Source of the DNA: Escherichia phage BP9
Reading direction: 5' to 3' (one strand)
DNA length: 64,000 bases
Sequence record: PP488543.1
The notes under the pieces were generated by a model, which saw only the letters and a list, made by a program, of their open reading frames with translations, ran no database searches and was not told the DNA's origin. Each line of letters opens with the position of its first letter. Position 1 is the first letter of the stretch. The position numbers were made by a program, and so were the translations under genes. Below, in pieces: positions 7,315-61,362 of this stretch.

Positions 7315-7323
7315 TTTTGTTAA

Positions 7324-7358
7324 GGCCCCTTCCAAATTAGGAATGGGGCTTTATTTTT
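7324..7358 (+). terminator. intrinsic terminator
   Basis: GCCCCTTCC-AAATTA-GGAATGGGGC hairpin then TTTATTTTT. Confidence 0.6.
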
Positions 7359-7373
7359 ACGAGGTATTTTCAA

Positions 7374-7994: not shown

Positions 7995-8000
7995 AAATTG

Positions 8001-8029
8001 TTGCTTTTGATGTATCTTTGTGGTAAAAT
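8001..8029 (+). promoter_or_regulatory. sigma70-type promoter (TTGCTT, 17 bp, TAAAAT with upstream TGG)
   Basis: -35 TTGCTT 8001-8006, 17-bp spacer, -10 TAAAAT 8024-8029; member of recurring TGGTAAAATAC family. Confidence 0.6.
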
Positions 8030-8047
8030 ACATTAGTGAGGGATATA

Positions 8048-8520: not shown

Positions 8521-8946
8521 GTGGCAGCAGGTTATAAGCTGATAGGAAAGAACAGACTAATACCTCGTAAAACATTCAAAGGTCGCCACAGAGTGTATAA
8601 CAAAACAGTTGGTGGCCCTTTTGCCAACGAGGGGTTAGAACTTGAGTATGAAGAGTTTGATGTCTTAGAGTGTGTTGTGCAGCCGTTGACAGGAAGGGCG
8701 GCTAAAGATTACTCCTCTCAAATAAACCCTGAAGGTGACAGACAGTACGAGGCTTTTACAGTTTACTCCTCAACCAAGTTGTATAGTCCGGATGAAGGAA
8801 CATACGCAATGGCTGATCAAATTCAACTTCCTGACATCCGTGGTGACTTGAAATGGTTTACCGTTTTAAAATGCGATGCATATGTTACCTCTGGTGGTGG
8901 GAGATATAGATTTTTTGTGGTAGAAGAGCCTGAAGGAGAAAACTAA
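8521..8946 (+). CDS. hypothetical neck/head-closure protein
   Basis: 141 aa; GTG start with SD AAGGGGG. Confidence 0.3.
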   Translation: MAAGYKLIGKNRLIPRKTFKGRHRVYNKTVGGPFANEGLELEYEEFDVLECVVQPLTGRAAKDYSSQINPEGDRQYEAFTVYSSTKLYSPDEGTYAMADQIQLPDIRGDLKWFTVLKCDAYVTSGGGRYRFFVVEEPEGEN

Positions 8947-9497
8947 TGGAAGCTTTCGAAAAAGTTTTTTCTGATCTTGAAACAACCATTGCTAAGCTTG
9001 TCAAGGTTGCCACAGGAAGAACTGTAGTTCTGGCAGAAAGCTCTACCATACCGAAGCCGGAAGGTGAGTTTGTACTTTTACAAACCTTGGCGATCAATCC
9101 TACCACTTGGGAAGATAATGAGTTTCAAGATGCGGAGGGTAATGCTTACGTCACCCACAGCTATACTGTTACCTATCTGCTAACAGCTTATCGTGGCAGG
9201 GCATATGCTGCACTTAGCAGAGTATTGCAAGCAATAAATCTTCCAATGTTTTATGACAAGTATTTCCCTCTGGGGTCGTGCTTTGCCTACTCTAACAATT
9301 CAACAATCTCACCTCAAAGAGTGCCGTTGAATAAGCAGACGTATGAAAATAGAGCCACTGTGATGCTGACATTTAACGTAAGGTTTGTTGAAACAGACAT
9401 TGGGGCTTTTGAGGATCTTCAGGGAATTAAGGCTGAAATAACCACACACTTCCCTTCACCCAATTCTGGTAAAGCGGTTACAGACAGTGGTCAGTAA
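8946..9497 (+). CDS. hypothetical tail completion protein
   Basis: 183 aa; TAATG coupling to upstream gene. Confidence 0.3.
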   Translation: MEAFEKVFSDLETTIAKLVKVATGRTVVLAESSTIPKPEGEFVLLQTLAINPTTWEDNEFQDAEGNAYVTHSYTVTYLLTAYRGRAYAALSRVLQAINLPMFYDKYFPLGSCFAYSNNSTISPQRVPLNKQTYENRATVMLTFNVRFVETDIGAFEDLQGIKAEITTHFPSPNSGKAVTDSGQ

Positions 9498-9507
9498 TCG
9501 TTATAAT
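9478..9507 (+). promoter_or_regulatory. sigma70-type promoter upstream of sheath gene
   Basis: -35 TTACAG 9478-9483, -10 TATAAT 9502-9507, spacer 17-18 bp; overlaps 3' end of previous gene. Confidence 0.45.
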
Positions 9508-9512
9508 TGTGT

Positions 9513-9556
9513 AGTGTAATGATTACACTGCGTGTTTGATATCCGTGCACAGATAT
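9513..9556 (+). promoter_or_regulatory. two palindromic operator-like elements in sheath gene leader
   Basis: AGTGTAAT-G-ATTACACT (9513-9529) and ATATCcGTGCACaGATAT (9539-9556) between promoter and SD. Confidence 0.4.
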
Positions 9557-9569
9557 TAAGAGGAAACAA

Positions 9570-10946
9570 ATGCCATATTTAGATAAGGTGGTAGATGTTA
9601 CAGTTAACCTCGGAACCCAGCCTATTGACACTGTAGGTTTCGAAACTCCCCTGTTCATCGCTATCCACAACAACTTTACTGAGCGAGCTCGCGTATATGC
9701 GGAGCTGGATCAGATGGTGGAAGATGGTTTCGCACAAGGCTCTGCAGCGTATGAGTTTGCAGCAAAAGCTTTTGGTGGTGTATTCCCTCCACAATACGTT
9801 ATGATCGGCAGACAGGCCAAAGAAAAGACCACTGTAGATTTTAAAGGTATTGCTGCCGCAGCTGATACCGATGTCGTAATGACTATTGCAAAAGGTAGCT
9901 ACAATACTTCTTTGATAGTGCCTATCTCTGGTGGAACAGGTGCAACTCAGATTGCAGAGTCAATGAAGACTAAAATTGAAGCAGATGATAGCTTGAACGA
10001 TATCACTGTAGAGGCTGCTGAAGGTGTTCTCACCATCACTGGTAACTGCACTGTTGGTTATCATACTGGTAACTACACAATCAAAAATATCGCCAATGCT
10101 GAAAAACCTTCTACAGTAGTTGATAAGATCAATGCTGAGCGTGACAATTGGTACTTCCTGTGCCATGAAGACCACACCGACATTGAAGCATGTGCCAAGT
10201 GGGCTCAGGCTAACTATAAGCTGCATGTCTACTCTACTGCAGAAGATGTGACTGGCAAAGATAATAACATCGCCACCAAACTGATGGCTGCACAGTATGA
10301 CAGTGTCGGCATGTACGATCCTCGTGCTGATAAAGATTTTCCAGAGGGTGGTATCGTAGGCGCTATGGCATCCAACGATCCGTCTTACGGTGACAGCTTG
10401 CACTTAAAACAGATGCCGGGTGTGATTGCACCATCTCTGACTTTAACTCAGCGCATGGCGATTTGGGAAAACCACGTTAACTTCTATAGAATGATTAACG
10501 GTGTTGGTGCTTTCTGGGAAGGTAAGTGTGCTTCAGGTCAGTATGCAGACGCTATTCGTTTTGCACACTGGATCAAGTTCAGATCTGAAGAATCTATGTT
10601 TGGGTACATGCATCGCCGCTCCAACATGGGTTTAAGCATGAAGATGTCTGATGATGATCTTCCGGTTATCAAGTCTGTCTTGATGAACAACCCAATCAAC
10701 ACTGGCATTAAGAATGGTGCGATCCTGACAGGTTTCGACGAAGACAATAATGTATTCTACGACCCGATCATTACAGTTCCTAAACGTGCAGAAATCCCAA
10801 CTAATCAGTTGGCTGCTCGTGTTCTGGAAGGTGTGAAAGTAGAACTGGTGTATAACAACGCCCTGCACTTCGTTCGTATCCGGATCAACGTCCTTCTGGA
10901 CAAAGTTGGTTCTAAATCCACCAATGCTGTTGCAATGACTGAATAA
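9570..10946 (+). CDS. putative tail sheath protein (alternatively major tail protein)
   Basis: 458 aa; gene order large protein, 157-aa protein, chaperone pair, tape measure; baseplate genes downstream support a contractile tail. Confidence 0.5.
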   Translation: MPYLDKVVDVTVNLGTQPIDTVGFETPLFIAIHNNFTERARVYAELDQMVEDGFAQGSAAYEFAAKAFGGVFPPQYVMIGRQAKEKTTVDFKGIAAAADTDVVMTIAKGSYNTSLIVPISGGTGATQIAESMKTKIEADDSLNDITVEAAEGVLTITGNCTVGYHTGNYTIKNIANAEKPSTVVDKINAERDNWYFLCHEDHTDIEACAKWAQANYKLHVYSTAEDVTGKDNNIATKLMAAQYDSVGMYDPRADKDFPEGGIVGAMASNDPSYGDSLHLKQMPGVIAPSLTLTQRMAIWENHVNFYRMINGVGAFWEGKCASGQYADAIRFAHWIKFRSEESMFGYMHRRSNMGLSMKMSDDDLPVIKSVLMNNPINTGIKNGAILTGFDEDNNVFYDPIITVPKRAEIPTNQLAARVLEGVKVELVYNNALHFVRIRINVLLDKVGSKSTNAVAMTE

Positions 10947-10956
10947 GGAAGCCTAG

Positions 10957-11430
10957 ATGGAAACTCAAATTTTAACTCCTTATGCGTATGACCCTAAAAA
11001 GGTCAAACTGTATCTGATGCAGCAGCGTGTCACTGGCTTCGCTGCTGACACCAAGATTGTTGTTTCAAGAAACGAAGACAACATTTATCCTCACGTTGGT
11101 GTGGATGGTGAAATGTCTGCGGCTCTGTCCCGTAACCAATCTGGTGTTATGACTGTATCTTTGCAGAACACTTCTGTATGGAACGCTTACCTTTCTGACT
11201 GGCAGAAACAGGCATCGATCACTGGCCTGGTATTCTTCCCGGTTCTGCTGGAAGGTAGCCAGGGCCCCGGTATTTCCACAATCGGTTGGATCCAGAAACA
11301 GCCTGACCTGACTTACGGAACCGAAGTAGGTCAACTGGACTGGGATATCGGTATTCTGGATGCATGGCTCAACCGTGACAACATCACTGGTGCTCTCACT
11401 GGCCTCGCAGGTCTTGCAGGTATTATCTAA
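10957..11430 (+). CDS. putative tail tube protein
   Basis: 157 aa directly after sheath candidate. Confidence 0.45.
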   Translation: METQILTPYAYDPKKVKLYLMQQRVTGFAADTKIVVSRNEDNIYPHVGVDGEMSAALSRNQSGVMTVSLQNTSVWNAYLSDWQKQASITGLVFFPVLLEGSQGPGISTIGWIQKQPDLTYGTEVGQLDWDIGILDAWLNRDNITGALTGLAGLAGII

Positions 11431-11448
11431 GGGCACACTTTAGCATAG

Positions 11449-11478
11449 GCCTCACCTTCGGGTGGGGCTTTTTGCTTT
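11449..11478 (+). terminator. intrinsic terminator
   Basis: GCCTCACC-TTCG-GGTGGGGC then TTTTTGCTTTT. Confidence 0.75.
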
Positions 11479-11520
11479 TATGGTTTTGACACACGTTCTT
11501 GAATTGCTTGAAAGGTTAAA

Positions 11521-11549
11521 TTGACAATGCACCATAATCATGGTAAAAT
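11521..11549 (+). promoter_or_regulatory. sigma70-type promoter (TTGACA, 17 bp, TAAAAT) with flanking inverted repeat
   Basis: -35 TTGACA 11521-11526; -10 TAAAAT 11544-11549; 9-bp inverted repeat TGCACCATA (11528-11536) / TATGGTGCA (11557-11565) brackets the -10. Confidence 0.65.
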
Positions 11550-11592
11550 ACACAAATATGGTGCACAACATGACTAATAAGGATGCTATAAA

Positions 11593-12066
11593 ATGGCTAT
11601 AAACTTTAGACCTACAACAGAGATTGATTTAGCAGGGCACAACTTTGTGATCACCCACTGGGGACCGATGAAAGCAATGAAAAATATGCCTAAAATCGGT
11701 AAGATTGTGGCTGTCCCGCTAGGTGCTATCGGTGGATCTATTATCTCAGGTGGTCAGAATATGGCAGAGGTCCTTCCTACTGCTCTGGCTTACCTGTTCC
11801 AAGAACTTGATGATAACTCTATTGAAGAGTTATTTAAAATTTTGTTCGAAGATATTACCGTAGATGGTGTGGATAAGCTTAACCCGGATGTTGTGTTTGC
11901 AGGGCATCTGCTGGAGATGATTAAGCTGGCAGGTAAGGTTCTGGAGGTTAACTACGGCTGTTTTTTCACACAAGACGGTTTAGGAAGCCTTCTGGAGATG
12001 TTACAGCAGATGGGTATGATTCAGCAGGTGAACAACCTGGATCAGACTCCGGAAGAGCAGGAATAA
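11593..12066 (+). CDS. tail assembly chaperone (G-like)
   Basis: 157 aa between tube and tape measure; contains slippery heptamer; acidic C-terminus. Confidence 0.6.
   Translation: MAINFRPTTEIDLAGHNFVITHWGPMKAMKNMPKIGKIVAVPLGAIGGSIISGGQNMAEVLPTALAYLFQELDDNSIEELFKILFEDITVDGVDKLNPDVVFAGHLLEMIKLAGKVLEVNYGCFFTQDGLGSLLEMLQQMGMIQQVNNLDQTPEEQE
11961..11967 (+). promoter_or_regulatory. -1 programmed ribosomal frameshift slippery site T_TTT_TTC
   Basis: Heptamer in zero frame of chaperone gene; -1 frame is open from 11952 to 12326. Confidence 0.5.
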
Positions 12067-12326: not shown

Positions 12327-12330
12327 TCTA

Positions 12331-12368
12331 AGGGCCGGATTCCTTTTCTGGGATCTGGCCCTTTTTAT
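12331..12368 (+). terminator. intrinsic terminator
   Basis: AGGGCCGGATTCC-TTTTCT-GGGATCTGGCCCT imperfect hairpin then TTTTTATT. Confidence 0.55.
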
Positions 12369-12380
12369 TATGAGGAAACC

Positions 12381-17780: not shown

Positions 17781-17792
17781 TAGAGGGCTTTC

Positions 17793-18509
17793 ATGGCTAC
17801 GCTTTATAGTGATATATTGATGGACCCACAGACAGGCGATTTGGCGATAGACAAAGGTCTTGAGTTGATAGATTCAAACCAGGTAAGTCTGCGCCAGCGC
17901 TTGTGGATGAGATTTAATACGTGGAAGGGGAGCTGGTACTTTGACGAGCTGTTTGGCTTCCCTTATATGGACTTTCTCAGCAAGAAGGTCATGAAGACTG
18001 TTCTTGATAACAAGATTATGGAAGTGGCAAGACAAGAGCCGGATGTGCTAAACATCATAAACTTCCAATCTACCATGGATAGAAGATCGAGAACATACCA
18101 AGCGTTCTTTGAGGTTGTTACCAAAGAGAACGAGATTGTAAGGCTGGCTTTTGTAGGTCTTGATCAGTTCACCTACCCACAGCCTGATTCTGGGACAACC
18201 TCCCTCTGTGATGATGAGGGTTGGATTAAGTGGGCTAATAAACTGTACTATCTGATCAACTTCAGATTGCCTAGAACCGGAGATGCCACATGGTGGAACC
18301 AGTATGCTGGTCCTGAGATGGAAAACCCGATCCCTGTAGGCTCTCTGTTGACTCAGGATAAAGATCTGCTGATGACTGAGGCAGAACAAACCATTAACCG
18401 CAATACCTGGACGCTTGCTCCAGATGAGCGCGAATACTCTGGTGTTATTGCTACCTCCAATGATGAGGCTATTGCCAACCAGTCTGGTCGTGCTATTGAT
18501 GTTAACTAA
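17793..18509 (+). CDS. putative baseplate wedge protein (gp25 / XkdS-like)
   Basis: 238 aa; N-terminal motif LRQRLWMRFNTWKGSWYFDELFGFPY resembles gp25/XkdS family. Confidence 0.4.
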   Translation: MATLYSDILMDPQTGDLAIDKGLELIDSNQVSLRQRLWMRFNTWKGSWYFDELFGFPYMDFLSKKVMKTVLDNKIMEVARQEPDVLNIINFQSTMDRRSRTYQAFFEVVTKENEIVRLAFVGLDQFTYPQPDSGTTSLCDDEGWIKWANKLYYLINFRLPRTGDATWWNQYAGPEMENPIPVGSLLTQDKDLLMTEAEQTINRNTWTLAPDEREYSGVIATSNDEAIANQSGRAIDVN

Positions 18510-61271: not shown

Positions 61272-61362
61272 CTGCTCTCCAATGACTAGTCTAAAAACTA
61301 GTATTAAGACTATCACTTATTTAAGTGATATTGGTTGTCTGGAGATTCAGGGGGCCAGTCTA
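60985..61362 (-). mobile_element. IS2 left-end remnant (terminal inverted repeat plus 5' part of insC/orfA)
   Basis: Minus strand reads TAGACTGGCCCCCTGAATCTCCAGACAACC... and encodes [56 protein letters not shown]...; match stops after ...KTMENELL near 60985. Confidence 0.85.

Follow-up and report, generated by a model that had tools for sequence, protein, structure and literature searches.

A conserved leader with two probable RNA hairpins precedes the tail sheath gene of a Vequintavirus coliphage

The sheath leader and its two palindromes

The window, a 64,000-nucleotide stretch of Escherichia phage BP9 (sequence record PP488543.1), belongs to the genome of a Vequintavirus (rV5-like) coliphage. 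Over the 2.1 kb that we compared (8900–11000), it is 100% identical to Escherichia phage VB-EcoM-WM and 95–99% identical to ~110 other rV5-like (Vequintavirus) genomes. Within this region, a 72-nt spacer (9498–9569) runs from the stop codon of the tail terminator gene to the ATG of the tail sheath gene, and it is this spacer that we refer to as the sheath leader (Table 1). The records of phage Murica, in which terminators and ribosome-binding sites are marked, and of VB-EcoM-WM annotate only a ribosome-binding site in the leader, and an Rfam covariance-model search of both strands of 9300–9800 returned no match up to E = 10.

Table 1. Genes, predicted hairpins and candidate signals in and around the sheath leader (window positions).
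Feature	Positions	Strand	Basis
TGGTAAAATA, rV5-type late promoter motif (read as extended -10)	8021..8030	+	motif scan; nearest upstream candidate mRNA start; in rV5 Table S4 as putative late promoters P056/P055 and others
Tail terminator / Tc1 gene, 183 aa	8946..9497	+	Pfam PF23961 (neck/tail-terminator family), E = 6e-21; "Tc1 tail completion protein" in rV5_ev records
Predicted hairpin A', upstream stop codon (9495-9497) in 3' arm	9473..9502	+	fold -12.8 kcal/mol, z = -6.3, 0/200 shuffles as good
cGtTATAAT, -10-like hexamer (TATAAT 9502-9507) with G at -14	9499..9507	+	sequence
Predicted hairpin H1, 12 pairs, loop UGA, contains palindrome 1	9508..9534	+	RNA fold -9.9 kcal/mol, z = -2.8; cross-lineage pairing
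Predicted hairpin H2, loop CGUGCACA, contains palindrome 2; 3' arm covers Shine-Dalgarno AAG	9535..9560	+	RNA fold -5.5 kcal/mol, z = -2.55
Shine-Dalgarno AAGAGGA	9558..9564	+	sequence; 6 nt 5' of sheath ATG; AAGAGGAAA kept across genera
Tail sheath gene, 458 aa	9570..10946	+	Pfam DUF3383; named tail sheath in many Vequintavirus records
Strong intrinsic terminator after tube gene (rV5 t052), likely 3' end of sheath-tube mRNA	11447..11470	+	scan: 10 pairs, 6 G-C, T-run; rV5 Table S4

The original prediction had placed two palindromes in the 5' leader of the sheath gene, and both are found exactly there. Palindrome 1, AGTGTAATGATTACACT (9513–9529), consists of perfect 8-nt arms flanking one G, and palindrome 2, ATATCCGTGCACAGATAT (9539–9556), of nine pairs with one C/A mismatch. 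On its own, neither is rarer than would be expected by chance in 64 kb: perfect inverted repeats (arms ≥8 nt, spacer 0–3 nt) occur 7 times in the window, compared with 4.4 ± 2.0 in dinucleotide shuffles, and 18-mers in which no more than one pair is mismatched occur 6 times, compared with 6.9 ± 2.7. From these window counts we estimate the chance of finding one of each kind within ~50 nt at roughly 0.05. It is because they are conserved and covary, and not because they are rare, that we regard the palindromes as more than chance. The original prediction had proposed a search for other copies in the genome; allowing up to three mismatches, no second copy of either palindrome was present in the window or anywhere in the identical phage, whose complete genome is 139,468 bp long.

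Conservation within Vequintavirus

Comparison of 14 distinct Vequintavirus haplotypes over 1,200 nt identified 191 variable sites, of which 77 fall in the 528 nt of the upstream gene and 114 in the 600 nt of the sheath gene; the 72 nt of the leader have none, so that a variability of 15–19% in the flanking genes stands against zero in the spacer between them. The invariant run in these 14 haplotypes extends from 9489 to 9586 and is three times the length of the next longest. Conservation in related phages, on which the original prediction had been made to depend, is what we observe for both palindromes.

Four other intergenic spacers were compared by aligning about 6 kb from six genomes. Here 25% of sites vary in the spacer at 7315–7373, 9.8% in the late-promoter spacer at 7995–8035 and 9.3% at 11431–11592, whereas the sheath leader is present in all six sequences and has 0% variable sites. 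Spacer 12327–12380 likewise has no variable site, but not all of the six sequences contain it. Among the non-coding stretches around the tail genes, the sheath leader is the best conserved. Haplotype distances calculated upstream and downstream of it correlate (r = 0.62), which makes the leader no obvious recombination joint. These comparisons show a constraint far above that of the flanks, indicative of strong purifying selection acting on the whole leader.

Base pairing between lineages

A search with the sheath protein, followed by contig look-ups, recovered three further lineages with the same type of leader. In the P0003 lineage (contigs of 125–137 kb, some of them in E. coli assemblies) the sheath is 71% identical to that of the window, and the genes on either side of the leader reach 74.7% identity over the final 300 nt of the upstream one and 72.3% over the opening 300 nt of the sheath gene. 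The P0003 leader is identical at 69 of 72 positions and so ranks among the top 0.7% of 72-nt windows. Two of the three differences (T9504A, A9513G and T9529C) are the two sides of the outermost pair of palindrome 1, which changes from A-U to G-C and is thus compensatory. The L007 lineage (sheath 70% identical) has a diverged leader, with 75% identity and 18 differing alignment columns, in which both helices are retained. The leader of the L114/L115 sub-lineage departs from that of L007 by just two changes, T to C and A to G, which together form one pair (U-A to C-G).

In the predicted H1, positions 9508–9519 pair with 9523–9534, the outward extension of palindrome 1 being made only through G.U pairs. 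Across the four haplotypes on which the H1 covariation rests, a number at which the shuffle control has low power, 95.8% of the cells for the 12 pairs are standard pairs, compared with 15–52% when the partner is slid by 1–3 columns. Two pairs change on both sides between lineages, 9513/9529 from A-U to G-C and 9515/9527 from U-A to C-G; among the others, five are invariant, four have changed on one side and still pair, and one is broken in both L007-lineage haplotypes. Within that lineage, 9512/9530 also changes on both sides (U-A to C-G), the other two pairs being those scored by the tool. When random mutants of the window sequence with the number of changes found in L007 were folded, 2.9% of trials gave an H1 as good as that of L007. 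The alignments show that base pairing in the predicted H1 has been maintained by compensatory change.

The predicted H2 comprises nine pairs (9535–9543 with 9552–9560) and is identical in the P0003 lineage, so that the comparison is one of two haplotypes only. In L007, a G.U pair has become A-U, a U-A pair has become U.G, and one base has been inserted in each arm at mirror positions (U and A), which adds a pair. The same insertion shifts the outer ATATC/GATAT half-sites of palindrome 2 apart by 2 bp. Random mutants with L007's number of changes folded as well as L007 in 6.1% of trials. With its G.U-compatible changes and symmetric insertion, H2 has probably been maintained, which points to selection for pairing here as well. 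Symmetric changes in quasi-palindromes can also be produced by template switching, without selection. A mini-ORF of six codons that begins within H1 (ATG 9519 to TGA 9539) was set aside as a candidate feature; it lacks a Shine-Dalgarno sequence and its length varies, reaching 13 codons in L007.

Predicted folding of the leader RNA

The sense RNA of 9470–9600 folds better than its shuffles (z = -4.0) and does so as three consecutive hairpins, A', H1 and H2. The first of these, A', pairs 9473–9481 with 9494–9502 and 9483–9485 with 9490–9492. Folding of the leader had been put forward in the original prediction as a check, and both H1 and H2 are better than shuffles when taken as segments (Table 1), although the helices are energetically modest and the 75-nt leader on its own is not better than shuffles (z = -1.1). 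Palindrome 1 folds alone at -4.4 kcal/mol (z = -3.9). An alternative pairing of 9494–9505 with 9515–9526 was discarded, since it formed only in a folded segment that lacked the 5' arm of A'; in full context the RNA adopts A' and H1.

The sense RNA is more stable than the antisense RNA by 11.8 kcal/mol (-28.2 versus -16.4), a difference that comes from G.U pairs. We do not take this asymmetry as proof of an RNA function: once the genome-wide sense bias (-2.5 ± 5.4) is counted, the leader lies at the 3.3rd percentile, in the 3% tail. In a crude test, opening the Shine-Dalgarno/AUG region cost 6.5 kcal/mol in the native leader and 6.0 ± 1.5 in shuffled leaders, and in L007 too the cost was no lower than with shuffles. 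A simple role in exposing the ribosome site is therefore unsupported.

The probable sheath transcript

The rV5 paper describes sigma-70-like promoters and a late motif, tGTGGTAAAATA, which by our reading corresponds to an extended -10 element; the motif precedes eight late genes, and gene 053 (sheath) is not among them (Table S4). The same paper lists no terminator after gene 054. A scan of the window located the motif at 8021, 11541, 25695, 31511 and elsewhere, and none in 9498–9569. Downstream of 8021, the only terminator-like sites in the scan are H1, in the weakest class, and t052 at 11447. With a late motif at 8021 and no strong terminator until 11447, the sheath gene is most simply placed in one transcript between these points, and the sheath mRNA most likely runs from the predicted TGGTAAAATA promoter to that terminator.

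The palindromes had been described in the original prediction as lying between a promoter and the ribosome-binding site. The -10 hexamer is indeed there, on the sense strand, but its standing as a promoter is unproven. The best -35 candidates by our reading match three of six positions at a 17-bp spacer or, as GTTACA, four of six at 19 bp. No usable -35 lies at 16–18 bp, the TG extension is represented by its G alone (there is no T at -15), and the site was reported neither by our promoter scan nor in the predictions of the rV5 authors. In relatives, the hexamer reads TAAAAT in the P0003 lineage and TCTCCA in the L007/L114 lineage. We also considered GGTCA(G/A)TAA, at the end of the upstream gene, as a late promoter. 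It occurs 5 times in the window against 2.0 expected, offers a poor -10 and coincides with the 3' arm of A' and coding sequence, and was rejected. The literature searched on Vequintavirinae phages contained no transcriptome, transcript-end, RNA-probing or expression data.

Proposed role of the leader and alternatives

We favour, with some confidence, the explanation that the two palindromes are the stems of adjacent cis-acting RNA hairpins, H1 and H2, which together with A' would make up a structured intercistronic leader acting on the sheath-tube mRNA. The RNA-structure reading in the original prediction is strengthened by three double compensatory changes and several G.U-compatible changes in H1 across four lineages, by the symmetric insertion in H2 and by segments that fold better than shuffles. 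The sense RNA of the 72-nt leader would form H1 and H2, preceded by A' with the upstream stop codon in it, and the hairpins would act in cis and post-transcriptionally on the sheath-tube cistrons. Their likeliest roles would be in protecting or defining mRNA ends and in setting the context for translation initiation; as modelled, H2 adjoins the Shine-Dalgarno sequence and takes part of it into its stem. Far more copies are needed of the sheath than of the neck proteins, whose genes lie upstream.

A variant of this explanation, differing in where the RNA starts, supposes that cGtTATAAT fires late from a start near 9513–9514 and that palindrome 1, as a 5'-terminal hairpin, then shields the sheath mRNA from 5'-end-dependent decay. 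We hold this to be possible but doubtful. The hexamer is a perfect -10 with a G at -14, its TAAAAT counterpart in P0003 keeps the same G and resembles the predicted rV5 late site P030, TGTTAAAATA, and a start ~7 nt downstream would coincide with the opening base of palindrome 1, which folds alone. Set against this are the lack of an acceptable -35 and of a T at -15, the silence of both sets of promoter predictions, and the TCTCCA of L007, which keeps both hairpins; moreover, the G.U-rich outer pairs (9508–9512/9530–9534) would lie outside such a transcript, yet they are pair-like in other lineages. It is improbable, in our judgement, that the palindromes act as double-stranded DNA operators through which a dimeric regulator, of the phage or of the host, governs transcription into the sheath gene. 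Positions of palindrome 1 change in both arms together, the signature of a helix and not of base-specific protein contacts, and the helix is extended outward solely by G.U pairs, which in DNA are mismatches. Palindrome 1 is asymmetric in L007 (G.T), and the 2-bp displacement of the outer half-sites of palindrome 2 in that lineage, tolerable for a helix, would not be so for a dimeric DNA-binding protein and argues against operators. The perfect 8+1+8 inverted repeat, the suitable length, the invariance of both sites within the genus and the two genes annotated as "transcriptional regulator" in the genome record are what operators would lead one to expect, as is the placing of palindrome 1 at about +1 to +17, a classical repressor position, if TATAAT is a promoter; the putative promoter, however, is missing in one lineage that retains both palindromes. 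No other copy or half-site pair exists at three or fewer mismatches in the 139-kb genome, further sites being common for such regulators but not obligatory. Dimeric-regulator operators, as the original prediction had them, are thus disfavoured by the solitary occurrence of the sites, the varying half-site spacing and the covarying pairs of palindrome 1.

Nor do we expect H1 to act as a weak intrinsic terminator or attenuator, stopping or reducing transcription beyond the neck genes, which we rate as quite improbable. The scan does list 9508–9534 as terminator-like, with 12 pairs followed by TTTGATAT, and sister genera carry GC-rich UUCG/GNRA hairpins at the same general position, some of them followed by T-runs. 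Only 3 of the 12 pairs are G-C, however, and at -9.9 kcal/mol with a tail (UUUGAUAU) of three U before a G the site falls into the lowest tier of the scan, whereas the real terminators of this phage have long U-runs and fold at -12 to -25 kcal/mol; the site is also missing from the ARNold/MFOLD list for rV5. Since no credible promoter lies 3' of H1, termination there would starve the sheath and tube, which virion stoichiometry suggests to be the most abundant tail proteins. The last reading, that the leader has no function of its own and is conserved as a recombination "linker" or through recent gene conversion, the palindromes being incidental, is very improbable. It would fit the chance frequency of each palindrome and the existence of patches conserved between lineages at other gene boundaries (10927–10998 and 11575–11646). 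The correlated flank distances give no breakpoint signal at the leader, and recent transfer would have left identity and not three differences that include a compensatory pair; the L007 leader, at 75% identity, has diverged and both its helices are still kept.

Within the preferred explanation, the cis-acting hairpins, there is room for a factor that reads sequence. The near-total invariance of the leader, loops and linkers included, is not explained by pairing alone, which suggests that some factor also recognizes the leader sequence beyond the helix. In L007, UUCUC replaces TATAAT, 4 nt after the upstream stop codon, and in the predicted fold it pairs with GAGGA of the Shine-Dalgarno sequence, closing a three-way junction with H1 and H2 as its arms. 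This modelled junction hints at a coupling to termination on the upstream gene and may be due to chance. One could go further and envisage a sequence-specific RNA operator, in which a phage or host factor reads the H1 apex (UAAUGAUUA) and the H2 loop (C-GUGCAC-A) and sets the amounts of sheath and tube relative to neck proteins, the anti-Shine-Dalgarno junction of L007 coupling sheath translation to upstream termination. This more specific version we regard as speculative and rather unlikely.

Short stem-loops that stabilize mRNA are well known from the ompA 5' UTR, the T7 phi10/gene 10 leader and the intercistronic hairpins of T4. The hairpins proposed here are like them in being short, in lying just 5' of the ribosome-binding site of a structural gene with very high expression, in their presumed action in cis and in conserving pairing over stem sequence. 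They are unlike them in that the helices are rich in A/U and G.U and not GC-rich with tetraloops, that loops and linkers are as invariant as stems, and that they are known from sequence alone. In the papB-papA and puf operons, intercistronic processing confers differential stability on transcripts in which a low-copy protein is encoded ahead of a major structural subunit. The order here is similar, low-copy neck proteins followed by high-copy sheath and tube in one unit with a structured spacer at the junction, but the A/U-rich single-stranded stretches of the leader are short and not conserved between lineages. Candidate RNase E sites in the linkers were discounted; by our reading they match the consensus (RN|WUU) only partially and are not kept from one lineage to the next.

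Translational operator hairpins bound by protein include those of the MS2 coat protein, the targets of T4 RegA and gp32, and the Com site of Mu mom. H2 resembles these in its invariant loop, in adjoining and partly pairing with the Shine-Dalgarno sequence and in being conserved beyond the needs of pairing; it departs from them in that no binding protein is predicted for the leader, the start codon lies outside the hairpin and the site is single in the genome. Palindromic operators of dimeric repressors are exemplified by lac O1, gal OE/OI and the lambda operators. With these the leader has in common inverted repeats of 17–18 bp near a -10-like hexamer, and its GTGTAA...TTACAC recalls LacI/GalR half-sites. 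The spacing between them is 3 nt, in contrast to 4 nt with a central CG in LacI/GalR sites, there are no further sites, the arms are compensatory and the spacing varies. The LacI/GalR resemblance, the spacing being off by one and L007 differing, is no more than a lead.

This kind of element is familiar; the degree of conservation is unusual and the example is new and unannotated. The finding is for this reason useful and not surprising. rV5-like phages find wide use in phage therapy and food safety, and make their tail proteins in very different amounts. As the best-conserved non-coding stretch near the tail genes, with helices kept by compensatory change, the leader offers a small and concrete target for experiments on late-gene dosage. 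For annotation, we would mark it as a structured RNA region and not as a promoter-operator.

Sheath leaders of other Vequintavirinae

In other Vequintavirinae genera, blastn alignments with this locus begin only at the Shine-Dalgarno sequence, and their sheath leaders are still chains of several hairpins. Hairpin A of these sister genera has 15 pairs, four of them conserved G.U pairs, and has its counterpart in A', which here lies inside the coding region. Hairpin B is GC-rich and variable, with a tetraloop. Hairpin C has the form GCAC-loop-GUGC and is followed by GGUCAAUAA, and in several lineages a small hairpin D stands just 5' of AAGAGGAAA. A, C and D were recovered by RNAalifold with many one-sided, pair-keeping changes. 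In the Seunavirus phage PVP-SE1, for which the authors annotated no promoter or terminator at the sheath leader, a search for second copies found the A, C and D sequences each to be unique in the genome.

A sigma-54 reading of TGGCAC-N-TGCT in the sister genera was rejected; the GG-to-GC spacing is 9 and not 10, and the Seunavirus version lacks the GG. The pseudo-ToxI of phage phiTE proved unrelated to the sheath-leader locus.

Seunavirus, Certrevirus, the A73 type and the Klebsiella KNP2 type share with the window the position at the tail-terminator/sheath junction, the succession of sense-strand hairpins and the small hairpin beside AAGAGGAAA. They differ from it in a hairpin A that lies outside the coding region, in the GC-rich B, in C (GCAC-loop-GTGC) and in a GGTCAATAA linker. 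H1 occupies the position at which C sits in the sister genera, and has no sequence counterpart there. Hairpin D covaries between lineages (CUGU/ACAG, CUUU/AAAG, AGTT/AACT, and UUAGUU/AACUGA to UUGGUU/AACCGA), and the D of Seunavirus, CTGTAYGTACAG, has a CYGT...ACAG core and flanking AUA in common with H2.

Hairpins of the sheath leader and their counterparts in related phages

The two sense-RNA hairpins of the sheath-gene leader, H1 and H2, are accompanied by a third, hairpin A', which straddles the end of the upstream tail-terminator gene and holds the stop codon of that gene within its 3' arm. Seunavirus and related genera carry the equivalent of hairpin A' in their sheath leaders as a hairpin of 15 pairs, GGUUAUUGAUAAGC...GCUUAUUAGUGAUC, with four conserved G.U pairs. 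At least four genera, all of them without H1, show sequence conservation of hairpin C, in which GCAC and GUGC enclose a loop of 4–7 nt, and of the (G)GUCAAUAA(C/U) that comes after it. This element is present as a single copy in the PVP-SE1 genome, and judged by spacing it is neither a sigma-70 nor a sigma-54 promoter.

In the L007 lineage, relatives whose leaders also form H1 and H2, a UUCUC located 4 nt 3' of the upstream stop codon pairs with the GAGGA of the sheath Shine-Dalgarno sequence, and the resulting helix is the closing stem of a three-way junction in which H1 and H2 form the arms (minimum free energy -18 to -20 kcal/mol, z about -2.5 to -2.9). This predicted junction may constitute a translational-coupling device.

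We also observed a six-codon mini-ORF with its ATG in the loop of H1 and its TGA at the foot of H2. The mini-ORF has no Shine-Dalgarno sequence; its version in the L007 lineage runs to 13 codons and ends in the sheath Shine-Dalgarno sequence. It is probably meaningless.

Positions of features in the window and in related sequences
Feature	Position	Remarks
Hairpin A'	9473–9502	spans tail-terminator gene end; -12.8 kcal/mol, z = -6.3
Hairpin C	30–60 nt 5' of sheath ATG	in L011, L012, L014, L015, L025, L055 and others
UUCUC/GAGGA helix	L007 1432–1436 with 1491–1495	same in L114
Mini-ORF	9519–9539	
Inverted repeat GATGTAT...ATACATTAG	about 8007–8036	around late promoter at 8021
Inverted repeat TGCACCAT...ATGGTGCA	11528–11535 with 11558–11565	around late promoter before gene at 11593
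Perfect 8+2+8 palindrome	61312–61329	end of 291-nt inter-ORF gap; overlaps start of ORF at 61325
Conserved patch, 93%	10927–10998	sheath-tube junction
Conserved patch, 92%	11575–11646	start of gene at 11593

The P0003 cluster and conserved patches

The P0003 cluster (L106, L112, L113, L116 and L117) comprises E. coli-associated phage contigs of 125–137 kb, with assembly GCA_012894635.1 as an example of where they occur. Its sheath is only 71% identical to that of Vequintavirus, no close relative was present in the phage collection searched, and the cluster looks like an undescribed sister group. The P0003 lineage is 73% identical to the window overall, and against this background two further patches stand out as conserved, with 93% and 92% identity. 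Translation-start regions here generally resist divergence.

Inverted repeats elsewhere and database records

The late-promoter motif TGGTAAAATA is bracketed by inverted repeats at two sites in the window. Only seven repeats of this perfect kind occur in the window, among them the palindrome that overlaps an ORF start.

Seventeen GenBank records titled 'Campylobacter phage' (MG0656xx) are 97–99% identical to rV5-like coliphages over the window region searched, and are probably mislabelled or derived from contaminated lysates. The linear record PQ014731 has arbitrary ends, which the window crosses at 17792/17793; because base 1 of that record corresponds to window position 17793, the window stems from an assembly of the same genome with another permutation.
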